DNA from: Rhizophagus irregularis
Taxonomy: Eukaryota
Reading direction: 5' to 3'
DNA length: 64,000 nt
Assembly: GCF_026210795.1 (NCBI RefSeq)
Contig: NC_089429.1
Span: forward strand, 2,790,001 to 2,854,000
Shown here: in pieces, positions 2,736 through 56,000 of the stretch
How positions within the stretch are numbered: the stretch's first letter is position 1
Layout of the letters: the number at the start of each line of letters is the position of its first letter
The notes under the pieces: model-generated
Seen by the model: only the letters and a program-made list of their open reading frames with translations
Databases searched by the model: none
Told to the model about the DNA's origin: nothing
Made by a program: the position numbers and the translations under genes

Positions 2736-3480
2736 TCAACAAATCCTTGCTTCTCTTTCGTTAGGCTCTTCAGATGATTTTTCAGTTGCATTCGATTTGG
2801 AATCCATCAAGTCGTCATCAACATCTTCGTCTTTATCATCATTGTCACTTATTTGGACTATGCTTCTTTTGCCCTTGGCTTTTTTGAAAAAATGCTTGAA
2901 TTCGATATCATCGATCTCACTTGCTCTGATTTTTTTCATTTTTTGTACTGAATGCATCGTTAATTTCCATAAGCGTACTGAAATCCTCTTTTAAGCTTTT
3001 TAATTCCTTAAAAATATCTACGTTTGTTTTTTCTAACTTCGTGTTTTTATTACACAAATCAGCTATTATCGCACGTAATTTATGATTTTCTAAAATTTAT
3101 TAACCAAATTTGGAAACAAACAAACTTTCAATGTAAAGCAACTAAAACAACCAATTTTAGCAATTTTGTTACAATTATACCAATTTCCAAAGATGGATTA
3201 TCATCATAAAGGTCTAAATTATGGCGAAGATCCTTTTGCTGTTCTAAATAGGAATCTGGAACCTTGAAATTTTTATATTGTTCTTTCATATGCTGAACTT
3301 TTAATTTTGAAGTAACGGTCGATTTGCTAGTGGTAGCAGGCTCGTTGCTAATGGTGGCAGCAGAAGTAATTTCAGAAATTTCAGAAGCTCTTTTGCTAGT
3401 GGTGGCTGCGGTGGCGGCAGGAGTAATTTCAGATAAATATTTATAAACTTTGGTAATTTTTTTTTTTCTTGTTGGGACAT
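2736..3480 (-). pseudogene. Degenerate accessory ORF divergent from the CACTA-type transposase
   Basis: ORF fragments 3128-3541 and 2736-2957 with A/T/S-rich and acidic segments, head-to-head with the transposase at 3972. Confidence 0.4.
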
Positions 3481-3971
3481 GGTGAAAGTAAAAAATTAAG
3501 AGAAAGAGAAAGAAAAGAGAGATGAGAGAGAAAAAATTCAAAATTTAGACTTTATAGCTTAAAATCAGTCGAATTAAGCTTTTTTCTTATAAGCTTAATC
3601 ACAATCAAATTATCATGATATTGTATTTACTGTCGATTTCTTAAAAAATTTTTAACAATTAAATTTATCCCTTAAATAATTAAATGATCTTTTTTATTCT
3701 TTTGATTATACGACGAATTTCTTATATTGTTCTTTAAAAAAGGATCTAATTTAACTCCTATGTATTACTTTGATTATATGGCGAATTTTTTATATTGTTC
3801 TTTAAAAAATAATCTTAATTGAATAATTGAAAACATATTATAGCGATTTATAATGTGAAATTGAATTTGTTCGATTTGTAGCGCAGCAGGAATTTACTTT
3901 TTAAAAAGAATTAAATTGACATTATTTAAAAATATATTGAAATAAATATTGTAAATTTTTTATTTTATAAA

Positions 3972-12149: not shown

Positions 12150-12827
12150 TATCATGTTACTCCAAATAAAATGAAACGACTTTTTTGGAATGATGAGAAT
12201 ATGTTATTCTGATCAAGAGGAAAAAATCACAAAATCACATGCACTAGGGAGATAACAGGTTAACAAGAATATAATCAAAAGTTAAAAACAATAAAACACA
12301 CCCGTTCTCTTGCCACTTTTTATCGAGATTAATGTTTTCCCAGAATTCCTTTATCCCATGTGTTTCATCCTTACAAAAAAAGAATGGAAAGTTAAAATTT
12401 TGACGAGTATGAATAGAAGATTTACAATTACAATTACAGTCACAATTACGAACTAGGAACGGCACCCATCACCCGGGTAGGAACGGCACCCCCCGAGCTG
12501 TTCGAAACAGGATATTACATTGTAGGAACGGCACCCCATACCTCGGAGTAGGAACGGCACCCCTCCAAGGCTATGCAACTCCTGTTTAAGAAAATGGAGA
12601 TTAAGTACCTTCTGTAATAGTGAAGTCGCAACTTTAACTTGCTCATTATCTCGTTTCTCAGACACAATTCTTTTTAGAACATTACGATATCGCTTTCGCA
12701 AAGCGGAGTTCTCAGAGAGTGACACGTCTTGATCAGTAGACATAAATACCGGTTTTAACGTTTCTAAAAAACTCAGATATGACCAATCTGAAGGAGGAGT
12801 ATCATTGAAATACGAATCGCAGAACAT
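12150..12827 (-). pseudogene. 5' part of a paralog of the 33301-36471 gene, truncated
   Basis: Exon 1 (12827-12609) MFCDSYFNDTPPSDWSYLSFL matches MGDPQTYFEEHATWSLISFL. Intron 1 (12608-12370) is at the equivalent position. Exon 2 DETHGIKEFW matches DEKSSPDVEAFW. The 3' boundary is approximate. Confidence 0.7.
12447..12588 (-). ncRNA. Intronic structured RNA element: 4 x GGGUGCCGUUCCUA in hairpin loops
   Basis: Exact 14-mer at 12454, 12478, 12523 and 12549. Flanking stems CCUUGGAG/CUCCGAGG and GCUCGGG/CCCGGGU; closing stems AAACAGGA/UCCUGUUU and CGAAC/GUUCG. Confidence 0.65.
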
Positions 12828-13330: not shown

Positions 13331-16300
13331 CCGGTGGTTAACATCACCGGTATCACATGACATTATAAAAATCATGTGACTTCAACATTTTTTACGATCA
13401 AAAAAATTTTATTTTTTTTTAATAAAAGACAAAGTACAAAAATCAATATTATAACTAAATTTAATTGGCTATATATCATTGATTTTGTTTATTACATGTC
13501 CTAGCATTGTGACCTGGTTCCCCACAAACTTTACATATATAGGTTTTCCAATTTGATGTATTTTCGCTCCTTTCTTGTCTTTGTGTATTAAAATCACTAC
13601 TAGTATTGGTATCAAGTACATTAAAAGGTGTTCTTGATGAAGACGCTTGTCTGAGGATGTTGTTGCACTTCACATACATACAAGTTAGGATCAGATGGAT
13701 TTATTGCACTATTTTTTGTACTAACATGACGTGAATTTGTACGAGCTGCTTAATCCGTTTATTTGGTGGATGTCCAAGTCATTTCTGAACTATAGGATCT
13801 AAAATCTGTAGATTTTCTTCATTGTTTTTATCGTTCGTTTGATCTTTAATAATATTTTTCTTGCAATTAATAAACTTATTAATCATATCAATAATTTCAT
13901 TTTCACATCCCAAATCAAGAGCTAAATTAAGAGCTTTCTTCATCTTTCCAAACCCATATGCATACTTAACTTTCCTTTGTAAACATTGTTTAATATTATT
14001 TGTAAATACGTCTGGTATTCTAAGTTGCTTAAATATATGCAAATCAGTTACTAAAGCAGTATTGTTATCATCTTGTTGAAACTGTGTTACTATTCCAACA
14101 GTTTCATCTTGTAAATTTGCTTGAATGTATTGATCTTGAATATCCTCTATATACCATCGTCTGGCAATAAGACCAATGTTAAATTTCGCCACCTTTGAAT
14201 TTATCATAACTTGAAAATAATGTAAACATACAAGTCCACGATTAATTATAGCCAAACAAGTACATAAATGACCACCATCTATTAATAATATAATATAATG
14301 CTTGTAGGTTTTTTTGGTAAGGCTATAAAGTTCCCAAATTTCTATAATGTCAGACAGTTCTATTTCTTCCAATAAAGAAAATAGAGAAGTTTGCGGTCTA
14401 TTCAAATGATCTTCAAGAAATCCTTCATTATAGTTACATTGATCATCATCCTAATTAAGAAATGTAACATTTCGCATATAGTTATATGACATCAGTGGCT
14501 TTTTTTTCACTTCGTTACAAATCTCAAAACACTAAATTTTTAAAGTTTCATACCTTTATTGTATTAATTGACTCTTTAGAAATAATCTTAGTACAATATA
14601 ACAAAGAACCAAGAATTTGTTGTTGTTGAACTGACAAAATATGAGGAGTTAAATATTTCTTCATTAATTCAACAACCTTAGGAAATATGGGTTCAATAAT
14701 TGAAGGTACCTGGTTAGTTGGAAGACTTTGAAGATATGCATTATGTCGAGCCCATTGTGCTTTATTGTTTAATAATTTTTGAATTTGAATATGTAAATTA
14801 CACAGTGAAGTAGTACTACTGGTGCTTTCTTTAATTAAATGGTTCATAACTTCAACCCTTTGTGTACTTTAAATACCCGCTGTAAAACACTTAGTTTGAT
14901 AGCATCTTGCCCATGTTTGATAACAATTATTCAAAGTTCGATTAAGATACTCTTGGGTTTGTGAATATTTTTCAAGTAATCGTGTCCAACGCCGGTGAAA
15001 ATCATTCACAAATAGACTATTTCGGGTATGTAGAAATTCCTTATAAAATGATTGGTATTCTTTGCCTAATTTACCTGCTAAATTTTTTCGTAGGTTTTCT
15101 TGAATGTGAAAAATGCAAAGAAAATGATGTGATTCAGGGAATTTTGATGTCACTGCATTTATTAAAGCAGGATCTGCATCAGAAAATAAGCAAGTAGGCG
15201 GATTATTATTAGTTGTTTGAAGAAGACAATCAAGAAACCATTCATAACTTTCAATTGTCCCATCTTCTGATAAACATTGAGCAACAAGACGGCTTTTAGT
15301 ATTATTATCAACTATGACTAAAAGAGTTAAATACATATCAAACCAATTGGTTTGGCATGTATTATCAATTTGTACAATATCATTATATCGCAAAAGACAT
15401 TGATGCTGATTAGGAGACATCTAGAATAAGCCCACAAGACGATTATCAAAAGGATCAAGTCTTGTGTAAATAATCCACCCAGGCTTCGATCTTAGCTCAA
15501 ATAATTTGTTAATCATATTCGAAAGATCTCCACGTCGATTTGTAGCCGCGATTTAAACTTTTGAATTGCATTGTAAAGATCTCTTTTATAAATATACTGA
15601 TCTGGAAAACTTGCAACCAATAATGGATATATTTGTTTAGATTCCATATTTCCTTTATTAACATAGAATTCGATCTTTTCAAGTATTTCATTTGATAATT
15701 TGCGATAAGGTGCGTATAAATGTATATCAGTGATCATACTATAATTATGTTCACCAGTAATGCTCGTGATGCTTACTTCTGTTGATGATTTAGGCATTGT
15801 AAGATTTATATGCCATGGACATATAATTTTTTGAGATGAACGTTGTCGTTGATGAGTTATATCAATTATTTGATTAGAAATAGATTTACCTGAAAAAGAA
15901 CATTCAAATGTTCGACATCGCACAATTCTATTATTATCAGATTCAACGCGTTTTCTTCTCAAGGAAAATCCAGCAAATTTAGCATATTGATTAAGCTTTA
16001 TTTCTGCATCCTCCCATGTAGAAAATGAAGTACCAACTTTAATGTCAATATTAGATTCATCTGACATTATACCTTCTAGTTGATCATTTAGGATATTAGA
16101 TACATATGTTTCGTTATGTTTATCTTTATCCATACTTGTATATAATAGCAAAATCAAATGAAAGAATAAAACAGTTGAAGTGTAAAGGATAAAGATTATA
16201 GAGAAAAGTAATGTGTTCAGCAAAATAATAATTTAAACGTGTTTAATGGGGAAGAGTAATGGGAGTAGAGTTCCAATCTGCCATCTGACGGATAATCACA

Positions 16301-25409: not shown

Positions 25410-27579
25410 CTAACTACTGTTAAACAATGATAACGACCACCACGACCTTAAACATAAACACATTCTTATAGTTTTCCCAACCAACCGGTTTCTTTTATCA
25501 GTAATCAAATTTTTTCCCCATGAAAAAACTTGCTAACGTAGTACTTTACTGGCTGATTAATAAAAAATCACGTGCCATTTTAGCAAGCTTGGAAATTGTT
25601 GCTCATTATTCTTCCACCATTCAAGTGGATCTTCATTTCCATCAAGCTGGGGTAAAGAAAGATATATTTGGTATTCATCAGCAGAACTTTCCACACGATG
25701 ACGTTTGAATACACGGGACATTACTGACTTTTTTTTATTAGGAGTTTCAGTTTGATCAGATTGAATAGAAACAGCATATGATTTATTATACATACTTAAA
25801 AACCTAAAAATTTAATAAAATTATAAAATTAGTATATATAATTGTAAATAATATAAATAATTAGTAAAATACTAACTTTTGTTGAATATCATTTATTAAT
25901 TCATCTCCCCATTCATTATCCTTGTAATATTGTAATTTCAATCTTGGATCCAAAATAGTAGAAATTAAATATGAATAATTTGTCTTGTTGTAATACTCCA
26001 GCAATTTTAATCTGCATATTTTCGCAGCATTTTTTATAATTTGACTCCATTCATTCTCATTGTTGTTGCCACTATTAGCTTCAGATTCATCATCTACATC
26101 TTCAATAACTTCCTCATTTTCATCTCCAATAACATTTACATCTCCAATAACATTTTCAACATGATCAATAAGAATATTATATAAAGGAATAGTAGTAGAA
26201 AGTGTTGGATAAGTAAATCCAAACATTATAGTTGTTACTTCTTTAAATAGAAATAAAAAATCCTTAATTTTTTCAAGTTCAGCCCATTGATTCTCTGTAA
26301 GTAAATATTTTTTAAGATCACGATCATTAAGTGTATGATAACAGAATCAATGGCCTAATTATATAATTAAAATTAATAAATAATTGAAATTATTAAAAAC
26401 TTAATATTTACAAAAATCAACTTACAATTTTTAATTGTAATGATCTTGAAATCATTTCGTAAGTGGAATTCCACCTTGTGGGTACGTCAGGTATAAGTGT
26501 TAAATCCTTTAATTGATTATTTTTACATGCCATTTTTAATTTTTCACGACGTAAAGAAGATGCACAAATTCTATTAACAAGATCTCTAAGCTGTAAGATA
26601 TAATAATTTTATTAGTATTAAAAAAAGAATTTATAAAATAATAAATAAGTTAAATAATAATTTTACCTTAGAAATTTCACTTTCCAATTGGGTCAATGCT
26701 ACTTGAACACTTAAATTAATGACATGGGCAAAACACCTAAAATGATTATCATTTTTATCAAAAAAAATTCTTTTTTCTATTGCCCAATTAGTTAATAAAC
26801 GAATGAATACTGCATTATTTGACGCATTATCTAATGTAATGTCCAACAGTATATGTTGTAATTTCCAGTCCTTATTAATAAAATGTGCAGTTATTGATAA
26901 AAATGATTTGACTGAAGAACTGGTCCAGCAGTCAATTGTAAATGAAATTTTTCCTGGAATATTTAACAAAATATTTTGAACTTTTTCTCTGTCAGTTCTA
27001 TAAAAATTCGAAATATGAGATTTAATTGTGTCAGCACTGGGAATTTTCGCAGTGGGGTGTAATGAATGTATAAAATTGATAAATTCTGGCTCCTCAGCAA
27101 TTGTAAATGCATGTTGTTTAATAACAATCCATTTTACCAGATTATTTATCATTTCATTATGATCATATCGACCACTAAATAATAATACAATTATCTATTA
27201 ATAAATAAAATTTATGAAATAAAAATAAAATAAGAAGTTATTTTTACCTTTGGTGCTTTTAACATTTCTAAAACATTTACTCCAGTTGACTGAGTTTCTT
27301 GCTGTATAGAATGAACATTTTTTAAATGTTTTGTTATATTCGTAGTACTACCCCAGAACATATATAAGTTTTGCTGCAATAAGTACAGGTAGCTCTTTTA
27401 TTATATTTAAAATTTTCATCTTTTTCGAAATGGCTCCATACAAAACTGCCTTGATTATTTTGAGCATTTTCTAACGATTCTAAATTACTTAATCTTCTTG
27501 CTGGTGTTGCCGGTAGGGACGCATCAATTTCATCCTCAGAATTATGACAACTTCCTTCATGTGTTGTTTCTCGGTCCAT
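25410..27579 (-). pseudogene. hAT transposase with BED finger and hATC dimerisation domain, multi-exon, disrupted
   Basis: VWSHF...ATCTYC, ISFTIDCWTS, ITLDNASNN, RCFAHVINL, DVPTRWNSTYEMI, ILDPRLK, DPLEWWK, CLRSW. Confidence 0.92.
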
Positions 27580-27724
27580 AGTTAGCTTTACAAAAAAATA
27601 AACCGAAAATCTTTAAAAAAATTTTTTGGTGCTACATATGTTGGTTGATAAACATCATGATTATCAACTTAGTGTTCCAAACGGATCAAATCGGATGAAT
27701 CTGATTTTGACTCGAATCCATTAT

Positions 27725-30700
27725 TTAAAAAACGTTACGTAACGTTTTTGATTTCAATTTAACGAATAAAAAACCGTTTCGCAACAGTTTTTTAATCATT
27801 TAATAAAAAACGTTGCGAAACGTTTTTTATTCCAATTTAATGAAAAAAACCGTTTCGCAACGTTTTTTAATCATTTTAATAAAAACGTTGTGAAACGTTT
27901 TTTATTTCAATTTAATGAAAAAAACCGTTGCTAAACAGTTTTTTAATCATTTTAATAAAAACGTTCGCGAAACGCTTTTATTCCAATTTAACGAATAAAA
28001 AAACCATTTCACAACAGTTTTTAATATTTTAATAAAAAACGTTTGCAAAACATTTTTTTATTCAATTTAATGAAAAAACCGCTCTAACGGTTTTTTAATC
28101 GATTTTAATAAAAAACTGCGAACGCTTTTTATTCCAATTTAACGAATAAAAAAACCGCTTCGCAAAAGTTTTTAATTATTTTAATAAAAAAAATGTTGCG
28201 AAACGCCATTTCAATTTAATTTGAAAAAAACTGTTTCTAACGGGTTTTCAATTATTTTAATAAAAAACGCTTGCGAAATGTTTTTTATTTCAATTTTTAA
28301 TCGAAAAAAAAACCGTTTCGCAACAGTTTTTTAATATTTTAATAAAAACGCTTTACGAAACGCTTTTTTATTGCATTTAATAAAAAAACCAGTTCGCAAC
28401 GGTTTTTTAATATTTTGATAAAAACGTTGTGAAACGTTTTTTTATTTCAATTTAATGAAAAAAACCGGTTCGCAACGGTTTTTTGGAATATTTTGATAAA
28501 AAACGTTGAGAAACATTTTTTATTTCAATTTAATGAAAAAAACCGTTTCGCAACGGTTTTTTAATATTTGATAAAAAAACGTTACAAACGTTTTTTTGTT
28601 TCAATTTAATGAAAAAAAAACCGTTTCGCACCGGTTTTTTAATATTTTAATAAAAAAACGTTGCGAAACGTTTTTTTATTTCAATTTAATGAAAAAAACC
28701 GGTTCGCAATGGTTTTTTAATATTTTAATAAAAAAAATGTTGCGAAACGTTTTTTTATTTCAATTTAATGAAAAAAAAAACCGTTTCGCAACGGTTTTTT
28801 AATATTTTAATAAAAAAACGTTGAGAAACGTTTTTTATTTCAATTTAATGAAAAAAAAACCGTTGCGAAACAGTTTTTTAATCATTTTAATAAAAAACGT
28901 TGCGAAACGTTTTTATTCCAATTTAACGAATAAAAAACCGTTTCACAAGCGGTTTTTAATATTTTAATAAAAAACGTTTGCAAAACATTTTTTTATTCAA
29001 TTTAATGAAAAAACCGTTCCGTAACGGTTTTTTAATCATTTTAATAAAAAACTGCGAAACGTTTTTATTCCAATTTAATCAATAAAAAAAACCGTTTCGC
29101 AACAGTTTTTAATTATTTTAATAAAAACGCTATTAAACGAAACGTTTTTTTATTTCAATTTAATGAAAAAAACTGTTTCGCAACGGGTTTTCAATTATTT
29201 TAATAAAAAATGTTGCGAAATGTTTTTTATTTCAATTTTTAACAAAAAAACCGTTTCGCAACGGTTTTTTAATATTTTAATAAAAAACGTTTGCGAAACG
29301 TTTTTTATTGCAATTTAATGAAAAAAAACCAGTTCGCAACGGTTTTTTAATATTTTGATAAAAACGCTTGCGAAACGTTTTATTTCAATTTAATGAAAAA
29401 AACCGTTTCGCACCAGTTTTTTAATATTTTGATAAAAAACGTTGCGAAACGTTTTATTTCAATTTAATGAAAAAACCGTTTCACAACGTTTTAATATTTG
29501 ATAAAAACGTTGAAGAAACGTTTTTTTGTTTCAATTTAACGAAAAAAACCGTTTCGCACCGGTTTTTTAATATTTTAATAAAAAAACGTTGAGAAACGTT
29601 TTATTTCAATTTAATGAAAAAAAACCGGTTCGCAATGGTTTTTTAATATTTTAATAAAAAAAATGTTGCGAAAGCGTTTTTTATTTTCATTTAATGAAAA
29701 AAAGCGGTTTCGCAGCGGTTTTTTAATATTTTAATAAAAAGCGTTGAAAGCGTTTTTTATTTCAATTTAATGAAAAAAAACCGTTCGAAACAGTTTTTTA
29801 ATCATTTTAATAAAAAGCGTTGCAAAGCGTTTTTATTCCAATTTAATTTAATAAAAAAAACCGTTTCATCAGCGGTTTTTAATATTTTAATAAAAAAAGC
29901 GTTTGCAAAACATTTTTTTATTCAATTTAATGAAAAAAACCGTTCCGTAACGGTTTTTAATCATTTTAATAAAAACTGCGAAACGTTTTTATTCCAATTT
30001 AACGAATAAAAAAAACCGTTTCGCAACAGTTTTTAATTATTTTAATAAAAAAACGTTGCGAAACGTTTTTTTATTTCAATTTAATGAAAAAAAACTGTTT
30101 CGCAACGGGTTTTCAATTATTTTAATAAAAAATGTTGCGAAATGTTTTTTATTTCAATTTTAAACGAAAAAAACCGTTTACGCGGTTTTTTAATATTTTA
30201 ATAAAAACGTTTGCGAAACGTTTTTTATTGCAATTTAATGAAAAAAAACCAGTTACGGCAGTTTTTTAATATTTTGATAAAAAAATGTTGCGAAACGTTT
30301 TTTATTTCAATTTAATGAAAAAAAAACCGTTTCGCACCGGTTTTTTAATATTTTGATAAAAAAGCGTTGCAAAACGTTTTTTTTATAATTTAATGAAAAA
30401 AAACCGTTTTCACAACGGTTTTTTAATATTTTGATAAAAAACGTTGCGAAACGCTTTTTTATTTCAATTTAATGAAAAAAACCGTTTCGCAACGGTTTTT
30501 TAATATTTTAATAAAAAACGCTGAGAAACGTTTTTATTTCAATTTAATGAAAAAAAGCCGTTTCGCACTTGGTTTTTTAATATTTTAATAAAAAGCGTTG
30601 CGAAACGTTTTTTATTTCAACTTTAAGAAAAAAACCGTTTCATGAATGCGGTTTTTAATCATTTTAATAAAAAATGTTGTGAAACGTTTTTTATTTCAAT

Positions 30701-31080
30701 TTAATGAAAAAAACCGCTTTTGCAACGGTTTTTTAATATTTTAATAAAAAAACGTTGCGAAACGTTTTTTTATTTCAATTTAATGAAAAAAAACCATTTC
30801 GCAACAGTTTTTAATCATTTTAATAAAAAAACGTTGCAAAACGTTTTTTTATTTCAATTTAATGAAAAAAACCGTTTCGCAACAGTTTTTTAATATTTTA
30901 ATAAAAAAACATTGCGAAACGTTTTTATTTCAATTTAATGAAAAAAAACCGTTTCGCAACGGTTTTTTAATATTTTAATAAAAAACGTTGCGAAACGTTT
31001 TTTTATTTCAATTTAATGAAAAAAAACCATTTCGCAACGGTTTTTTAATATTTTAATAAAAATGTTGCGAAAGCGTTTTT
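27725..31080. repeat. Tandem array, about 80-bp dimeric palindromic unit, about 3.3 kb
   Basis: Alternating aaaaccgtttcgcaacggtttt and aaaacgttgcgaaacgtttt subunits. Confidence 0.95.
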
Positions 31081-31374
31081 AACAATTAACTTAACAATTG
31101 CAACGTTTTCAATTTAATAACAGGGCATTTTTTCATCTTATTTTTATGAAAAAAGGCTTTTTGATCTGATCCGTCAGGATCGATCGGATCGTCAAATCTG
31201 AATCTGATCTGATCTGATTTGTATGAATTGTTGATCCGATTTGATTCGATCCGAATCGGATCAAATTTTTTTGATTCGGATCGGATCACGGATCATAAAA
31301 TCTATGATTCGATCTGATCTGTCTCGGATCAGATCCGCGGATACGGATCAGATCGGATTTTTTTTGGAACATTA

Positions 31375-32854: not shown

Positions 32855-33552
32855 GTTTTTGCGAAAATAATAAAAATTTATATAAAAAAAACAGTAATAA
32901 AACTTAACAATTTCAATATTCTTACTTGTCAAAAACACTTAGCCAAAGGTTTGAACGATTGGTTTGACGTTGGAACGATTGGTTAGACGTTAGAACACGT
33001 TAGAACGATTGGTTAAATCAAAAAAAAAAAAAAAAAATTTTTTTCTTGTGTGTTCGCATCAGCTGCGCAAATCACGGGTGCAGAAATCATCTGATCAGTG
33101 ACCTTAAAAGGCCCAATTATTACAATACGCTCATATGGCCCGAAATGTGTTATCCGGTTTCCTAAATCATTGAATCATTGGATGATGCGCAATCTCGTGA
33201 AACGTACAACTATAAAATCAGGAGCATGCGCTGATCGCTGTCACGCTTTAGTGAAGTAAAAATTATAACGCGTAACCCGTCGCAAATACCACCACTTAAA
33301 ATGGGTGACCCACAAACATACTTTGAAGAACACGCAACCTGGTCGTTGATTTCTTTCTTGCAATACAGACGACAGTATGCAAAAGATTTCACAAGAGATA
33401 AACTTAAAGAGCATAGGAAATATACGAAAGAACTTGATAAAATTATTTCAAATAATGAATCAAAGGAGAAATGTGATCAAGCTCAAAAATGTCTTAACGA
33501 CTTTGATGTACGTGTTTTTATATAAATATTTATCAATTAACTAAGATAGAAG

Positions 33553-33693
33553 CCCTGAGTAGCTGGCTGACTGCGTCTCGGCCAGTGATAGTGAACCGCG
33601 CCTTCCCTCGGGGAATAGACTGCGCCTCTATTTCCATGTTGCAACTAGGAACTGCGTCTTTCTGGTTGTTAGACTGCGTCTCGTTTCATGGAA
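33553..33693 (+). ncRNA. Intronic structured RNA element: 5 x ACYGCGYCU in hairpin loops
   Basis: Motif at 33570, 33595, 33619, 33651 and 33673. Stems GCUGGCUG/CGGCCAGU, AAUAG/CUAUU and CAACUAGGA/UUCUGGUUG; closing stems CCCUGAG/CUCGGGG and UUCCAUG/CAUGGAA. Confidence 0.65.
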
Positions 33694-34115
33694 TATATCT
33701 CCTATTCCTTTGATTATAATGATAAGTTTTGGTTATTTGATTAGACTCATATATTCTCTGTTTTATAAGGACGAGAAATCATCTCCAGACGTAGAAGCTT
33801 TTTGGATATCGGACACGATATATCTTACCAAGGTGAACAGATTACTATCTATAGATTCTTATTTTAACGAGAAATTGACTTAACCATACTTAATAGTTAA
33901 ACTATGCAAAATCTGCGTTGGATAAAACCGTCGAAGAAGCAAAGGAAATACGAACAATTGTGTCTGATGAAACGATATCCATACTAAGAGACGGTGTAAG
34001 TTATTCTGTGAGAGTATATGTGCATTTTTTTTTAACCTTGTTGTTTATCCATAATGAATTACTGTGCAATTTTGGTACTAGAACACTGTTCCGCATGTTA
34101 AGACTCCTGAATCGA

Positions 34116-34782
34116 AGCGAGCGCCAGATAGTGATAGTGAAAGCAACGAAAAGGTTAGTATAAATGTAACACAGATAATGTATTATACAAAGGTTTATGT
34201 GTATATTAATTTTATATATTTCACAAGCCAGGAAAGCGCACAAAGACCGAAGATGATGAGTATCATGATGATGATGAATCAGAGCGAGCGCCAGATAGTG
34301 ATAGTGAAAGCAACGAAAAGGTTAGTATAAATGTAACATAGATAATGTATTATACAAAGGTTTATGTGTATATTAATTTTATATATTTCACAAGCCAGGA
34401 AAGCGCACAAAGACCGAAGATGATGAGTATCATGATGATGATGAATCAGAGCGAGCGCCAGATAGTGATAGTGAAAGCAACGAAAAGGTTAGTATAAATG
34501 TAACACAGATAATGTATTATACAAAGGTTTATGTGTATATTAATTTTATATATTTCACAAGCCAGGAAAGCGCACAAAGACCGAAGATGATGAGTATCAT
34601 GATGATGATGAATCAGAGCGAGCGCCAGATAGTGATAGTGAAAGCAACGAAAAGGTTAGTATAAATGTAACATAGATAATGTATTATACAAAGGTTTATG
34701 TGTATATTAATTTTATATATTTCACAAGCCAAGAAAGCGCACAGAGACCGAAGATGATGAGTATCATGATGACGAATCAGAA
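34116..34782 (+). repeat. Tandem exon+intron duplication, 167-bp unit x4
   Basis: Unit starts at 34116, 34283, 34450 and 34617; each is a 74-nt intron plus a 93-nt exon (PGKRTKTEDDEYHDDDESERAPDSDSESNEK). Confidence 0.95.
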
Positions 34783-36687
34783 AGTGATGAAAGTGACGAT
34801 GAATGTGAGTTAAGCTAAGCGTGGAAGAAATGGGATTTGACGAGTACGTTGATCGAAATGATCAACCTGTAAGTATATTTTTTTCTTAAGGTTGATTGTA
34901 AGTACGATTTTTTTAAAACAATAATCGTTTTATAGTTCATTTTCAAAACAAAAAACATACCGTCACTATTTGAGTCATATCGATCCAAAGCGTTAGCTCA
35001 TGCGCAAAATTCTGGTCTGATAATGACGAAAAATTATCACGAAATATTGTAGGTAGAACTTTTAAATGTAATGTCTTTTTAATGATTAACTTTGCTGATG
35101 GAGGTTGATTATTATTTTTTTTTTGAAAATTCAGGAGTCTATCCCATATTCTTTTATTACAAATGGATAATTATTCGGAAACGCAAGTAAAAACGTTCTC
35201 TAGGGAAACGCTCGAAGATCTTAGAAAGGATATTAAATCAAAGTTAATCGGAAAAGAAAAAGTAACAAGGGACGTAAAATCAATCCTACAAGAGTGCATT
35301 GAGGTTCGTATTTTTTTATTATCATCATTCTTTTGCAATGTTCCCTTTACTGACTATCTTGCTTAGATTGCTCTTGACGATAATGATGGTGGATTACACG
35401 AACTTCGCGAAACCATCACTGAATCTTTTTCGAAAAAATTTAATTCAACAGCAGAGAAAGAATTTCTTCGACGAATGAAGTTTCTCTTTGAACATCTGTA
35501 AGTTTTGATATCTCTTAGTTAAGCAACTTTTTGAAATGGCTGTTAACAAGATTTTTTCTTGCTACTTTGCAGGTCTTATACTATCCCATTACATCCATTG
35601 AAAGAAATTATAAGCGAAGGGACACTTGTGGCGAATATAATAAGTCCGGTGTTACGAATTTTTTTTCATGACTCATACATATATCCCACGATATGGCCGA
35701 ACACATCCAGCACCAGCGCAAAGGTCCGAAAACTTGCCATCGGTGATCCTTCCCGGGCTAAACAACCCGATATGATCGGGAAAATTGTCAATAATGGTAC
35801 TTATATAAAAAACAGTTAATCATAAAAAATACAAATAAATCTGTTCTAATTATTTCTTTAACATAAACAGGAAAATTTGTTTATGAATCGATGTTCGGTG
35901 AGGTGACGGGAGAAGGAAAAAATAACACGGAAAAAAAGAATCTAATCGACCTGGTTAGATTGGGGATATTTATGAAAGATTCCCTTGATAATATTTCGCG
36001 TAAGACCGGTGTCAATCGGATTTTCGGTTGGCAAGTTATTGGTAAGCTGGTCTTCCAGGAACGCTTGTTTTAACTAACTTATCCTACCTAATTAATGATT
36101 CTTCATGTAATAAATAGTGACAAAGTGGACCGGTTATATGATGACATTAATTAGTCCAGGGATTTACGTTATGGTTGACACTGGTAGTGTAGATCTTCCA
36201 AGATCTTTCGAAGTATGCAATACGTTTCTATCTGGTCTGGATACGCTGTTTGCATTTCAGGTATAACTTAGGAATATCAATATTACTTGTTAATTCTGTA
36301 TAAATGACTAATTCAAAACTGTTCCTCTAGATAGCATATGAAAAAACAATAATGGATATCCTCTCAATTATGAATAAAAGTGAAGAAGTTGAGAGTAATG
36401 ATAATTTTAAAGGATGGCGTCGATCAACACTTGGAACACCATCGTTCAAAAAAATTGTGAAGTTCAAATAACTATCAAATAAGATATTACTTGTTAATAG
36501 AACATATATTTACGTAATATTAATCAACTAATTATATTCTATATCAGCTGTTTCTTTCTTTTTCAATATTAATAAAGTTGTTTGCTCGCAATCCGGTTTT
36601 AATTTTCATGAATTGACCTTACTATATATATATAATACGCACATTATATTTATAAAATGCATATATACAAAAAGACAGAATCAAACC

Positions 36688-37374
36688 TTATTTGTCCAAT
36701 TTCAGGGGTATATCCCAACCTAATCTAGTTGTGAGAGGATCATCAGTTGCTTTAGTAAAATCGAAGACCACAAAATTCCGATCTCGCAAATGTTTGTCAA
36801 TAATCTTGGAAGCTTTTTTAGAGTTATCCGTATACTGACGTACGATTCTGGCTATATCATCCCGACTTCCCGCCCCTCGAAAAAGGGCTAAATGCGTGAT
36901 ATTCTCACGAATAATTTTAGGAGTTTGTGTATACTTCTGGCTCACGTATATACTTGATACACCTTGATGTCGGCCACTGATAAAATATGGAACAATCCGG
37001 TCCTGAATTTTCTTTGATTCAGCGCAAAGGTCCTCAAAGACTACAACAGTGTTTCTATCTGGTGAGAACTTAGTTATATCTGGAATTGCACCTGCTTTTA
37101 ATGCACGAAATGTCACGTTCTCCCGATATGTTTTTGGGCCCTTCGAAAAAATTTCGTAACAGTTTTTCACTAATACCCATTTGGGCTCATGGATATGCTT
37201 TCCGATTAAGACTAGATCATCATTTTTGACATACCGCTCCCCTTTCTTTTCCTTGAACAAACGTTGAATTTTATTTCCAAGAAGAAGATTAAGAATCATA
37301 TTGGTTTTTCCACTGTCTGATCCACCGCAAATTAACAAACGAAAGGGAAACGCAGGACTGGCAGGGTGATTCAT
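36688..37374 (-). CDS. A32-like (FtsK/HerA superfamily) DNA-packaging ATPase, Maverick/Polinton type
   Basis: Intronless 228-aa [18 protein letters not shown] (Walker A), VVVFEDL (Walker B), ISGRH (Arg finger), YVSQKY...PKIIREN. Confidence 0.85.
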
Positions 37375-38109
37375 ATTCTTTGAATTTTTGGTCTCGTTAA
37401 GATGGTATATATGTTGTGCGTCAAGTGTCGATTTGCGTCAGATGCAGCTGACGTGCGTCAGATGTAAATTGATACTTGACAATAAAGTTTTCCTATAGTA
37501 AAAAATTTTTTTTACTAATAAAATTATTTTTTTATTCCGTAAGTAAATTTGTTTGTTACAATAAATTACACATATTGTGAAAATTTTATGGCTATTTAAC
37601 CTATGTTTAATTAAATATTGTAAATTTACTTGAAAAAACTTGTAATTTATTAATATTTTGAATGAAGTGTTTTCCATGAAACTGAGTCTAATCAATTTAA
37701 TATTACAGGTTTACATATTTTTTAACAAGATTAATAAACTTATTTAATAAAGAAATTTAGTTTAAGTTTGAAAATTTTAATTTAATTATAACTTAATTTT
37801 GCATATTTTATATCACAAGTGACGCGCGTCAGGTATCAATCTACGTTTGACAGCATAAGTAAAAATCGGTGTTATTGGCTAATTTATTTGTCACGTGATT
37901 CAATTTACGTGATCAGCAAATATATGTAACGCGTTATTTTAAAAAAAGGAAAAAAGGCTTAGATATATATCACATAATAACACATATTCAAATTTTTTAT
38001 GGAAGTTCAGCAGTCTTTTCTCAACCAAGATCCGGTTTCAGTTTGAATAGATCTGACTTTAGGTTAGATTTCTCTTAATAGTGATGACAAGAGGTTTTTA
38101 TAAGTGAAA

Positions 38110-45823: not shown

Positions 45824-48800
45824 ATGGTTAGATATCAATGCCAAATTTGTAAAAGAGAATTTTCAACTTACAGCGGTTTAAAACAATATGCCAATGTTAA
45901 ACATCATGGGAAAATGAGATCCTCCCAACTAAATGAGTCACCAGTACAGCAAAGATCTTTGTTGCAGCCATTAAGAGAAATGATAAGATCAGAACATGAT
46001 GCAAAACTTTGTAGCACGTCAATTATTATGCCAAATCCAACTACTTCGCAAGAAAAGCTTACATCACAGGATGATGATGATGAGATGAAGCAATTTGAAC
46101 CTTCATCTCAAGATGAAGACTTAGTAAATATTGCAAATGAGTTAGAAGATGAACCACGTTATCATTTGCAAAAAAGGTTACGGTCGAAGAGAGGGTCGAA
46201 GCAAATTTTGAAGAATCGGAAGCCAGAATCAGAATTAGTAAACTTTGAAGATACTGAATTCATTGATCCTGAAGACCTTCAGGGTGCGTCATTAGATGAT
46301 GCCATAGATGTAGTTGATGGAAAACCCACACCAGAGCGCATAGTAAAATGGCCGAATGATGCATATCGCGACTTTTTGGAGTTGATAGTAGAGGGTAATA
46401 TCTCTAATAAGATAGGTGATAAAATAATAAAGTTTTTCAACAAACATAATAATTTAGACAAATCACCATTGCCAAGTTCAACGAAAAATGGCAAGGATTA
46501 TCTTAATCAAATAAATTCACCTTTGATAGACTTTAAAGAAAAGGTTGTTGCGACCTATAATGAAATTAATTTTACCTTCTACTATCGCCCACTTTTTCAT
46601 GCTATTCAAGCTCTTCTGCAATGACCGGAAGTAGCCAATAACTTCGTCCATAAAGGAATCCAAAATAAAATGAAGGTCTGTATAATAATTTGATTTCCAT
46701 CTGCAATGATAAATTACATTATTTATGCTTATTTAGTTATTTATATTTTCAGGATGATAGAGCTGAAACAAGAATATTTGGCGAACCTTTCGAAGGTAAC
46801 TGGTGGTTAGAAACCGAAAAGAACCTTCCATCATTAAATCGACTATTATCCATCATCTTATACTCAGACACAACAACTTTCGATGGACTTGGGAAATCAT
46901 CAGGCTATCCAGTTTTTTTAACTCTTGGTAACATTCCAAATCATGTTCGAAATTTGCTGGAGGCTAAAATTCTTTTAGGATTTCTCCCTAAAGTCCAAGA
47001 TACAGGAATCAAAACAACAGAAAGTTTTTGAAGTTTACAGCGCGATGTATATCATAAATGCTTCAAAATTATGCTCCAACCTTTATTAGAAAAATCTGAA
47101 GCGCTATATTTTGGAATTAATGGACAAGTGATTACTTTCACTGCACGGATATCATTTTTTCTCGCAGATATGCTTGAAGTTGATGATATAACTGCGACAT
47201 ATAAAGGAGCGCAGTGCAAAATGCCATGCCATACTTGCATGGTTTTGCAAAGTAATTTGAACAATATGAGTCTTAAACTAGAGAACGTACCTCATAGAAC
47301 TCATGAAAATATGAAGCAAGTAATCAACGATGGCTAAGGAAAGGAGTATTCTGTGCATTCTGTTGAAAATTCCTTCTGGAAATTTCCGTAAATATCTTTA
47401 TATTTCTGTAATGAATTTCAAAGATGTAAATTTTTACACACGTATAATTTGTTTCAGAAATTTGAATATATACGAAGCCTGCGTTCCTGACCGTATGCAC
47501 CATATCGATCTTGAACTCTTCAAATACCAATTGGAATTTACACAAGATATTTTGAAGGCAGTCAGAGGAACAGAACTACAAAAAAAATTTGATGATCGAC
47601 TTCGTCAGATTCCTCGCTTCCCGGGTCTTAAACTCTTACATAAATTACGACATTTAAACGTACTTACTGCATCAGACTATCGTAACATAATGAAAATTGC
47701 CCTTTTTGCCTTAGATGAAATTTTTGAAGGAAACGAAATAACCTGTAAAGAACTTTGCGAACTTTACGCAAAGTTTAGTAAGATGTACATAATAAGCAGG
47801 AAAGAAATATATACTGAAGAAGATCTGAAAATTTTTGAAGTAAGTCAAAGTTCATAAAGTCACATTGGAAATCATCAACACACTAAAGATTATCAATTAT
47901 AGTCAGCAATTATTGATTGGTGCATTGATTTCAAAAAGATCTTCTCTCCATTGTCCACTACTGACTGCAATTTTCTGAAGTTACACAGTTGGCGGTATCA
48001 CGCAGGTAGGACGCTAGTAAACATACAGTATATGATTTTATCCTAATTTATTATGATTGTTTTCAGTGCCTGCTATTAGAAAATATGGTGCATTGAATGG
48101 GTTGTCAACGGAAACGTATGAAACCCTCCACAAATCATATGTCAAAACCCCATATCGGTTATCAAACAGAAAAGACGTAATGAGACAATTGGTGAACGCT
48201 GTTAGTTGAATCCGACATGACTAAAATCAATTTCTTTGAAATATACATACATTTAATAATATTTTTTATAGGTAAAACACAAAGAATTGACATCTTCTGC
48301 TAAAAAAGTTATTCATCATAAAGCCAAAGGATTTGGAAAAGTACTTTGGGAACTAACATTAGATAATATCGACCAAAAAATAAAATCGTTGAAAAAATCT
48401 GAAAATCTACCACATTTAAACTTCATTGAAGGGTTATCGCAATTAATTTCAACTTTAAATACCTTTCTGGACACATCTTCGCAGGAGTCCAAAAGTGACG
48501 AATTTTACATTAAAATTTATGATTCAGTACACCTGGAAGATAGACATATTTTAAGAATGACAGGAGAATTCCAAGATAAAGAATGGTTCAGTAATATTGC
48601 GGTAACTCCTGCAGAAGATCAAGAGCAATACAATTCGGATGAGGGAACTTGGTATGGAAAAGTAAATGAATGATTAAGATTGATAAAGTGTTGTATGTCA
48701 TTAATCAATTTTCTTTATAAGGTGTTGTTATTATTTAAATTCTTCCGAGGTTCTTTCAAAGAGCCATATGAACTTGCTCTGGTTCATTGGTTTGATATTA

Positions 48801-53035: not shown

Positions 53036-56000
53036 TCAAATGCACAAGTTGACCAGCTGATAGCTAAACCTGTTGTTAAAGTAGCAGCTGTTGTTACTTG
53101 TATTTTTAGCTAATTCATCTACCATTTCATTCATAACATCTCCACTATGTCCCTTAACTTTCACTAATTCTAGATCCATCTTTTTTTCTTGTAAAAGAAT
53201 ATCTATCTTGAGTAAGATTAAAGAATTAGTCTGTTTTAGTAGTTTCCTGCCTGATTTATTATGTTGATTATTGATCATGTAGATGGCGCTTTGACTGTCT
53301 GTATAGATCCTGATTTTTGCATTCATAGGACCTGTAAGTAATGCCAGGAAAATGGCCACTAATTCTGCACGTGTAGATGAGGGCCATAATGATAAATTTG
53401 TTTGGGCTGACAAAGCAGGTTCATTATTAACACAAAACGCTGCACCCATATTTGTGTACACTAGATTAGGGTTTTGTTTGCCCACTGATGTAGGGATGCT
53501 TGGCATGAGCGAACCATCTGTGTAATATTCTACCTCTGTTCTCTCTGCTAGTATATTTCTAATATCTATTAGTTGAGCTTTCAAGTTATCATCATCTATC
53601 CATCTGTGAATCCATATGTCTTGAACCAATGGTAAACTAATTATAGGATTTAGGGCCGCTGTTGGTACCATATCATCAGGTATCGTAGTGTTAGATCGAT
53701 GAGTTGATGACAACCATTCGCTAGGGAAATTCCAACCGCGCATATTAGAACTTTTTCTAATATTACCACCTTGCAATAGTAAGCCGGTATGGATCGTCAG
53801 TGTCCTGCCATCCTATGATTCCGTTATTATTGTATCCCAGTCGATAATTCACTAAAATCCCCTGTTCGTGTCAGAGTATTTTGTTAACTTTGCCTATTGA
53901 CCATGCGTCTGAATTAGCCAAAGGTTCCCGAACATAGACAACTTGTTTACGGCGTGCGTCTGGTGTGATATCCATTAAAAAGGCCCAATGGTTAACTTTA
54001 GCAAGCTTCAGATCATCATTTACCGTTAAATTATCTATTCTGGATGTGCACAAATAGGTCACATCACAATACCATCTGGCTACCCTTCCTTGTACCGGGA
54101 GTAATGCTAATTTACGATATTGTTTCCATGTCATAAGATGTGTACCCCTGATAAATAATTGATCAATATAGAATATTGGGTAATGTGGGCTTTGGTTTAT
54201 CCGATTGTGAGTTGATATTGTTTAAAGAACTTTAATATCAGCTCTTTCCCCCCTAATACACTCCAGATTGATCTATCAATCGGGTCTATCGCCATTGTCA
54301 TGTCGAGGGTTTTAGCTATTACCAATGCATTAAATGAGACGTTTTTCCGGGCTTAGGCTTTATCCAAGGCATTACTTGAAGATCGTAGTCAAAAATTGGA
54401 TCCGTAATGAGTGATTTAAGCTGCGCGTCTCTGAGTCTAATCTGTGTTAATGTCGCTGCGTATGAATCACTATTCAACCTAATCGTTAAGTCTGTTATGG
54501 TATTGATGCAGTGGAGTTTCCATGGATGATCCATACCGAGACATCCCTCATGAAATAATAATGACGAAGGTGTGTTCTTAGGTAATTTCAACCAATTTTT
54601 TACCACCTTCATTACCGGAGCAAATATGTGATTCCAATCATGCTCTGATAATGTCATAATTTGAGCTGTATATATTAGTCTAGGTATTAATACTTTATTG
54701 ATTAGGTAAATGCATTGACCAGCTGAAACGAATTTCCTACGGACTATAGTACAAAAATCGTTGACTATCATAGATATTGGCGTTGCATCCATCATCGTCT
54801 GCTCAGTTTATTGGAGAACCAGACTCTGAGATACCTTATTTCCTCATTTGTGGCTTGAATTATAGAACGATCACGACCTAGTTCAATATTTTGTTCGTGC
54901 CATTCCACAGTTGGGTTGATGATTATCAATTCTGACTTCTTAGCGTTGATATCAATATCATTAATTATATAGAATTCATTTGCTATATCTACTATATTTT
55001 GCATCCTAAATCTTGATGATTCTAAGAATATCGTATCATCCATATATGCACATACGGGAACCTGAAGCCTGTATTGCGTCCATGTGATAGGGTCATTAAT
55101 ATCATTCGGCCAGGTAACCTTCATTTCATATCTGCTGTCTTTGATTTGCTGTATTCTTATCAACAGCGGATCATAAAAAATTCGCCACAATAGCGGGGAA
55201 AGTGCGTCGCCCCTGATCAATTCTGTCATTTCCGGTGAACCCATCACTTAGTCCATACGCTGTGGCTACTTTAAGGTGTCTGTGTTTGAAGAGGGCTATA
55301 ATCCATTCAACCAATGATGCTGGGATGTCAATACGAAGCATGGCTCGTTTTAAAACCTCTAATCCCACTGAGTCAAACGCCTTTTTCATATCCTGTGTGA
55401 GGACCCATAGTTCCTTACTATTTTCCCTGGCATCTTCTATAAAATTGTTAACTAGGTGTATTGGTTCGCTTGTGCATTCTCCAGATAAACCGCAACAATT
55501 GTATCCCTGTAGTACGTTACATTGTTTCAAAACTGAACTCAACCTATTCGTGATCATCTTTGTAAAGGTTTTCCGAAAACAATCCAACAATGCAATAGGT
55601 CGAGTATTCAAAATGTTGTATTCAAAGTTGATGGGCTTAGGTATGGGAAGAATGACCGATGTTTTCCATGCCATAGGCACAAGTCCAGTTTGTAATGTCA
55701 AGTTTCCGAACTTGACCATGAAGAGGATTAATTCCTCAGGCAATCACAGGTCGAAATTAGTTAAATAGGGTATTAATAGGTTATCAATAGGTTATCAATC
55801 GGCTATCAATAGGCTACCCTATTGGTAGCCTATTGAACTTGCGCCATAATCCGTCACCAATCGGGCAGGCTGATTGTTAGCCAATTAATAACTTATTGAT
55901 AACCTATTAGTATCCTATTGGTATTTTTATCAAATTGGTTATCAATAAGATCAATAAGGTATTAATAGGTTATCAATAGGTTATCAATCAGCCTGCCCGA

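Follow-up and report, generated by a model that had tools for sequence, protein, structure and literature searches.

A Conserved Intronic RNA Array with a Gene-Specific Loop Motif in a Gene Family of Arbuscular Mycorrhizal Fungi

The first intron of a putative nuclease gene in the window, as the whole 64-kb stretch of DNA analyzed here is called, belongs to a real and conserved family of intronic RNAs, apparently undescribed to date, whose loop code is specific to each gene. Its hallmark is a short motif repeated in predicted hairpin loops, one base of which is switched in concert between paralogues. The sections below lay out the intron and its predicted fold, the base switch, the distant relatives, and the domain that may read the loops.

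The gene and its first intron

Exon 1 (33301–33507, + strand) encodes a 69-residue domain of four helices, the "header", with the pattern YF-x5-WSL-x3-L-xYR...EH-xx-Y-xxx-L; it is the candidate RNA reader. Intron 1 follows at 33508–33769 (+), opening with GTACGT and ending in TATAAG. The original prediction of a 262-nt intron was borne out by RNA contigs, which show its exact removal in run X17 (joint 33507>33770) and its removal at a shifted placement in X16; on these joints, 33508–33769 is a spliceosomal GT-AG intron. The gene's other introns are indeed smaller, mostly ~63–86 nt by RNA joints, and the GC-rich core is equally evident, intron 1 having a GC content of 0.39 and 10 CpG compared to 0.19–0.32 and 0–2 in the other introns, for some of which the boundaries used in this count were one or two nucleotides off.

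Contigs from RNA also cover the intron itself in three of the four RNA runs, two of them reaching across the donor site (depth 2–3, among the pieces listed), and in run X18 the listed RNA piece of the region is entirely intronic (33519–33669). These contigs are a weak hint of retention. By translation, a retained intron 1 would stop the frame at 33523–33525 and yield a 74-aa header-only peptide; in the distant paralogue L002, a retained intron would likewise lead to a stop at 76 aa. An open frame at 33563–33880, running into exon 2, was rejected as coding, as it is not conserved in L002.

Exons 2 onward (33770–36471, +), delineated by translation, tblastn and RNA joints, encode a helical/acidic linker and then a C-terminal domain. 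The linker region at 34082–34800 consists of a 167-nt exon–intron unit in four tandem copies. Right after these repeats, and before the C-terminal domain, the window allele suffers frame shifts and stops at 34816–34818; in the models P0004 and P0007, from other assemblies, the frame continues through the stop region. Compared by eye, the downstream exons of the window resemble those of R. irregularis P0005, which makes this species the most likely source of the window.

The motif array and its predicted fold

The motif ACYGCGYCT occurs five times, always on the + strand and always within intron 1, against an expectation of 0.14 in 64 kb, and no copy lies elsewhere in the 64-kb window. The five copies originally reported are thus all present, starting at 33570, 33595, 33619, 33651 and 33673. 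Copies 1 (33570–33578), 4 (33651–33659) and 5 (33673–33681) read ACTGCGTCT, copy 2 (33595–33603) reads ACCGCGCCT, and copy 3 (33619–33627) reads ACTGCGCCT. Their flanks had been said to differ but to base-pair. With the motifs held fixed and the remainder shuffled, 21 of 25 flank positions pair against a null of 10.5 ± 2.4, a value attained in 3 of 200,000 shuffles, and the statement stands.

The further proposal that pairing places every motif in a loop holds for part of the array. Copies 1 (closing A-U pair P 0.88) and 4 (11-bp stem, P 0.78) are predicted to occupy firm 7-nt loops, and copy 3 becomes a third in the core fold, as the loop of a 6-bp hairpin, with a closing-pair P of 0.35 in the whole-intron ensemble. 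Copies 2 and 5, however, have short stems of only 2–3 bp and are not predicted as loops in the whole-intron ensemble (P 0.00 for each); the 3-bp helix of copy 2 is invariant in five of five aligned rows. The repetition of the motif in hairpin loops is therefore firm for two to three of the five copies. The two closing stems proposed to enclose pairs of hairpins likewise fared unequally: CCCUGAG/CUCGGGG forms with P of at least 0.74, whereas UUCCAUG/CAUGGAA appears in the minimum-free-energy fold of the core only and does not exceed a P of 0.5 in the whole intron. The predicted architecture comprises two modules on the + strand. Module 1 (33553–33613) is a three-way junction of an outer stem, a long hairpin bearing copy 1 and a short hairpin bearing copy 2. 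In module 2 (33632–33693), as seen in the core minimum-free-energy fold, UUCCAUG/CAUGGAA surrounds a long hairpin with copy 4 and a short hairpin with copy 5.

A predicted basal stalk, pairing 33533–33547 with 33726–33740 (+; 14 pairs, P at least 0.58), closes the whole RNA domain; outside it remain 25 nt next to the donor and 29 nt next to the acceptor. Four nucleotides behind the stalk, a pattern scan picks out the branch-site-like ACTCAT (33745–33750, +); the basal stalk of a more distant locus, L004, also adjoins a branch-like site. In the close paralogue discussed below, A>G at both 33540 and 33735 would turn stalk pairs into G·U, and 33739 G>C would break the end pair.

Global folding energy, expected from the original prediction to surpass that of shuffled controls, is no better than theirs, the whole intron having a z of −1.27 and its core one of −0.62. 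The z scores of sense versus antisense strands are also weak, the sense values running from 0.37 to −2.13, and on this account energy alone was set aside as evidence. An Rfam search of the intron returned a best E of 1.3, far below gathering scores; among snoRNA boxes, neither RTGATGA nor, in the GC core, ANANNA was found. The ends of the insert have no exact arms of the kind that MITE-type terminal inverted repeats would provide, the basal stalk depending on G·U pairs, and a check for dispersed MITE-like copies found none elsewhere in the 64-kb window. Contigs from four DNA runs reach into exon 1 or the intron flanks.

A concerted switch at the fourth motif base

In the window, base 4 of the motif is G in five of five copies. 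A close paralogue, read from four DNA runs aligned to 33280–33900, carries G>A at 33573, 33598, 33622, 33654 and 33676, which is base 4 of all five motifs; this A form is seen in three of the four runs. Elsewhere in the core of X4/X7 there are only 4 other listed changes over 148 nt, compared to 19 over 186 nt in exon 1, and of 40 core Gs six changed to A, five of these being base 4 of a motif (post hoc p ~9e-6). X13 has extra single-copy changes at 33600 and 33677. A mutation bias at TpG or CpG was rejected as the source of the G>A changes; 0 of 10 other TpG sites changed. The A form is independently confirmed in all five copies of P0060 and in all four copies of P0002 from Ambispora leptoticha, both gene models that wrongly translate the intron, while L002 has U at base 4 in four of four copies. 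Motif positions 3 and 7 are mixed among copies, whereas position 4 is uniform. A counter-example is Funneliformis mosseae P0003, in which a G-type header precedes a mixed array: base 4 reads G, A and G in turn, and the final copy is irregular.

That one base changes in concert in five separate loops is in itself an uncommon and clear-cut mark of switched specificity. Because all five loops switch together, we infer a binder with a paralogue-specific readout, for which the simplest candidate would be the adjacent exon-1 domain. The exon comparison must be read with care: exon 1 of the A-type paralogue bears frameshifting deletions and may have diverged in part neutrally, and both this paralogue and the window allele are broken genes and thus say nothing on present selection.

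Header residues 36, 40 and 44 vary along with the base: K/K/E in G-type genes, N/T/G or Q/N/A in A-type genes, and R/L/S in the U type. Spaced as i, i+4 and i+8, they lie on one face of helix 34–51 in the AlphaFold model. This apparent co-variation of header residues with base 4 is a lead only, because the four pairs are related by descent and exon and intron are physically linked.

Distant relatives share the modules

Arrays in the introns of paralogues were among the things that the original prediction called for. A metagenome scan matched 30 stretches, of which seven passed tblastn and four proved to be genuine header genes (L002–L005), L006–L008 being dropped as false matches after inspection. 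Loop-motif arrays are present in four of the four genuine loci, in each case in the intron that immediately follows the header exon. Two of the loci, L002 and L003, are near-identical; their exon 1 is 44% identical to that of the window, and module 1 is present twice, L002 matching the window module at 87% over 62 nt. When the five copies of module 1 are aligned, few and related as these rows are, 95.8% of cells are paired; two pairs show a change in both partners and six in a single partner. L004 and L005 display instead a 6-nt loop, UYUCGY, in six and four copies, respectively, and their modules are 91.7% paired with no double change. Against shuffles, flank pairing reaches 18/20 positions in L002, 25/30 in L004 and 16/20 in L005. 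All three subfamilies are built from one unit, in which a short linker joins a long hairpin to a short one, and L002 and L004 have their modules in tandem duplicate. Flank pairing and the module alignment together identify a conserved stem-loop within the gene's own intron.

Stem mismatches had been described as biased toward G-U on the sense strand. Counted over flank positions 1–5, there are 19 G·U against 4 A·C, a tally in which duplicated modules are not independent. The excess agrees with selection acting on the single sense strand and would exclude double-stranded cruciforms. The broader claim of an RNA element under selection draws on the paralogue stems, the base switch and the G·U excess, but receives no help from folding energy.

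The module repertoire is larger than the CYNCGYC type. L002 interleaves CYNCGYC modules with a second type at ~285–330 and 412–455, a GAGTACGTTCC hairpin interrupted by internal loops. The translated sequence of this second type is found again in the models P0045 (Ambispora) and P0050 (Jimgerdemannia), and additional module types occur in P0041 and P0017. Intron modules thus seem to be mixed and matched.

The window itself holds a second header-like exon at 12609–12827 on the − strand, whose hhalign match to the profile of the header is weak (E 6.6e-4, probability 27%). Its following intron (12370–12608, −; 239 nt) contains GGTGCCGTTCCTA four times, in two long-plus-short hairpin pairs, and this motif is absent from the rest of the 64-kb window. 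Its fold z is −0.46 and the rigid flank test is weak, at 12/20 (p ~0.05). Past its next exon, this gene apparently decays.

The header domain

The AlphaFold model of the header has a pLDDT of 87 and helices at residues 4–10, 16–26, 34–51 and 55–67. With 13 K+R and 13 D+E, the domain is not net basic, and fold searches peaked at a Z of 5.3 with no known RNA-binding fold matched. A search with the whole-protein model retrieved generic helix bundles only, and an Atlas match to DUF4932 at 0.90 was treated as chance-level. Searches of Pfam, NCBIfam, PHROGs, PADLOC and PDB sequences assigned neither the header nor the C-terminal domain to a family. Viral and prokaryote collections yielded no relative by protein or by module pattern, the matches L001, L009 and L010 extending over merely 12–20 residues.

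Thirty homologues of the header were found at E<=0.001, one of them from Jimgerdemannia, and many end a few residues past the domain, at the position of the window's intron. Whole-protein homologues comprise 29 Glomeromycota gene models. Copies from Rhizophagus, Funneliformis and Ambispora (P0001, P0002, P0005, P0008) are 88% identical in exon 1 and 84% in the best local alignment; such high identity across distant mycorrhizal fungi points to either horizontal spread or assembly contamination.

A proposed mechanism

The reading that we favor, with confidence evenly divided for and against, is that the header would bind the loops of its own intron 1 and damp its splicing. It starts from an intron that is spliced in some transcripts, as RNA contigs show, and that carries an array and stems conserved on the sense strand by sequence comparison, with a loop base uniform within each intron and G, A or U between paralogues. 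The basal stalk is predicted to fold the 200-nt insert away, leaving a donor–acceptor spacing similar to that of the 63–86-nt introns, and to display on its top pairs of long and short hairpins that would suit a dimeric or cooperative binder. The binder would be the exon-1 domain, whose helix-3 residues 36, 40 and 44 differ by G, A or U type. Binding would then favor retention, and with it the 74-aa header-only peptide devoid of the putative nuclease. The result would be a private negative feedback for each paralogue on a potentially harmful cassette enzyme, possibly with a self-holding off state, as the header-only peptide could itself be the repressor.

Alternatively, splicing efficiency or transcript stability may be set by the stalk and hairpins, acting in cis or via an RNA-binding protein of the host, and the header may not be a reader at all. 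The basal stalk beside a branch-like site in both the window and L004 would suit such a role, as would the intron-covering contigs in three of four RNA runs, and the match of the header to no known RNA-binding fold speaks in the same direction. We nevertheless think this unlikely, as it leaves unexplained both the three intron-uniform states of a single unpaired base and the different motifs of the subfamilies. That exon and intron are neighbors counts against the favored binding of the loops by the header, since linkage alone makes them travel together.

Which domain the RNA follows

The original prediction offered, as a second branch, an antitoxin-like RNA for the encoded nuclease. The C-terminal domain is putatively a nuclease, which is itself a lead: the motifs SEGTL, QPDMIG and FGEVT, picked by eye in an alignment, are ones that we take to be PD-(D/E)xK-like, the domain has a pLDDT < 50 in its predicted model, and in the Atlas it occurs only in Mucoromycota clusters. 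Gene comparisons weaken this branch from both sides. L002 keeps the module despite a diverged C-terminus, its C-terminal coding region sharing with the window a single 31-residue stretch at ~29% identity. Conversely, the translated gene models P0006 and P0008 have a C-terminal domain almost identical to that of the window, joined to another header and to unrelated intron repeats. Judged from these genes, the RNA array goes with the header instead of the C-terminal domain, and this speaks against an antitoxin; the RNA is not inherited with the nuclease domain, as that of a type III system would be.

A trans-acting role for the excised or retained intron, as decoy or antitoxin of the full-length protein through its header or its nuclease domain, is accordingly rated as quite improbable. 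The multivalent display of loops and the fully intronic X18 piece at 33519–33669 would agree with it; the occurrence of the RNA, however, is tied to the header and not to the C-terminal domain, and its repeats are hairpins, not tandem pseudoknot units. Type III toxin–antitoxin RNAs are made of pseudoknot repeats processed by the toxin. The likeness to them, in the part of the account available, is one of repeated RNA units beside a putative nuclease (PMC8383071), whereas the present RNA co-segregates with the header and shows neither tandem units nor pseudoknots.

The neighborhood of the gene

Convergent to the header gene lies a gene for a Pox_A32-type packaging ATPase (36688–37437, −; PF04665, E 3.3e-10, above the cut-off). 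The ATPase gene is likewise a convergent neighbor in L002 (89% nucleotide identity over 764 nt, at 2777–3540) and L003 (85% over 519 nt, at 3032–3550), and at 85–89% it is far better conserved than the cargo gene. An ATPase-like remnant is also seen upstream in L003, at about 1–190. In the DNA examined, L004, L005 and the second window gene have no ATPase neighbor. No terminal repeats were found around header gene and ATPase, and no capsid or polymerase gene was seen in the window. The pairing suggests that header gene and ATPase may constitute a mobile cassette of viral origin, as yet undescribed in mycorrhizal fungi.

GC-rich stretches at 33050–33100 and 37415–37470, upstream of the header gene and the ATPase, are inverted look-alikes by eye with CAGCTG and GCAAATC cores, on which blastn is silent; they are possibly shared promoter elements. 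Farther upstream, 27000–31100 is an AT-rich tandem array of ~78-nt, imperfectly palindromic units. Fragments of MULE/FAR1, hAT, Plavaka and RT/RNase H are scattered at 13782–16232, 25864–27194, 46669–47028 and 53039–55743, and to judge from them the region is a transposon graveyard.

A virus-like cassette invites the thought that the array serves as binding, nicking or packaging sites in DNA or its single-stranded form, and is intronic by chance. The conserved convergent ATPase and the CpG-rich core inside a CpG-poor gene would accord with this, and single-stranded DNA tolerates G·T as well. Yet the array invariably has the sense orientation and lies in the intron next to the header exon, the 19 G·U against 4 A·C exclude double-stranded cruciforms, no terminal repeats were found around the cassette, and L004, L005 and the second window gene lack the ATPase in the DNA examined; we therefore hold a DNA role to be very unlikely. 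A neutral relic, such as a small repeat or MITE with copies homogenized by mutation bias or conversion, is largely refuted and the least credible of all: the graveyard surroundings, the weak folding z, the tandem duplication of modules in L002 and L004 and the broken allele are in its favor, but it has no second copy in the 64-kb window and no terminal inverted repeat, its core differs at 4 of 148 other sites compared to 19 of 186 in exon 1, the base takes three states, one by transversion, and conversion would not leave position 4 uniform with positions 3 and 7 mixed.

Relation to known systems

The systems compared here are characterized from the available portions of the sources cited. The favored binding of the intron loops by the header has its closest likeness in Saccharomyces cerevisiae, where Rpl22p binds a stem-loop in the RPL22B intron and inhibits its splicing (PMC4838235); an own-intron stem-loop bound by the gene product is, by analogy, the working model here. 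Rpl22p, with shown binding, has one rRNA-mimicking site in a housekeeping gene (PMC4838235), whereas the present system would have four to six repeated loops, a domain of no known fold, a concerted base switch and binding that we infer. CsrB and RsmZ also repeat a short motif in hairpin loops on unrelated stems, which suits multivalent binding (PMC8383071). They are free bacterial decoys with a fixed GGA motif for the global regulator CsrA (PMC8383071); the array, in contrast, is intronic, eukaryotic and in cis, with the gene-specific motif CYGCGYC, and does not qualify as a free RNA with GGA loops. The Drosophila P element offers a mobile-element gene whose retained intron, IVS3, gives a truncated N-terminal, non-catalytic protein (PMC7776569). 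It differs in having an exonic silencer to which host proteins bind and a truncated product that is itself DNA-binding, and the portion available describes no intronic loop array (PMC7776569).

Crinkler-related (CR) REase proteins have alpha-helical headers, proposed to direct translocation (PMC5289972, PMC6131194). They share with the present family a swappable helical N-terminus, C-terminal motifs that are PD-(D/E)xK-like by eye and a TE-rich fungal setting; compared with canonical CRNs, the header is all-helical and not a ubiquitin-like LFLAK header. Intron RNA is not mentioned in the available portions of the CR-REase accounts (PMC5289972, PMC6131194), and the main text of PMC5640933, as far as it is available, contains no Rhizophagus, Mucor or Glomer- terms. 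No description of the intron family was found in the literature covered, mostly non-subscription; the supplements of Zhang et al. 2016 may cover the protein family.

Significance

The array points to a candidate new RNA-binding domain in an expanded, unannotated gene family of arbuscular mycorrhizal fungi. A bolder generalization, which we consider doubtful, is that a large family of selfish Mucoromycota cassettes, in the present case with an A32 ATPase alongside, uses a rapidly evolving, orthogonal code, in which a four-helix header reads a loop base repeated four to six times in its intron 1, every paralogue adjusts all copies in step with three helix residues, and a retained-intron peptide locks the nuclease off. 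If true, this would be a eukaryotic, splicing-based counterpart of plasmid and phage incompatibility groups, in a fungus whose nuclei share a cytoplasm. If the header does read the loops, "header" domains would acquire a function other than secretion, and the G, A and U types would represent natural orthogonal protein–hairpin pairs. It would also account for the tolerance of numerous related, putative nucleases within one common cytoplasm.
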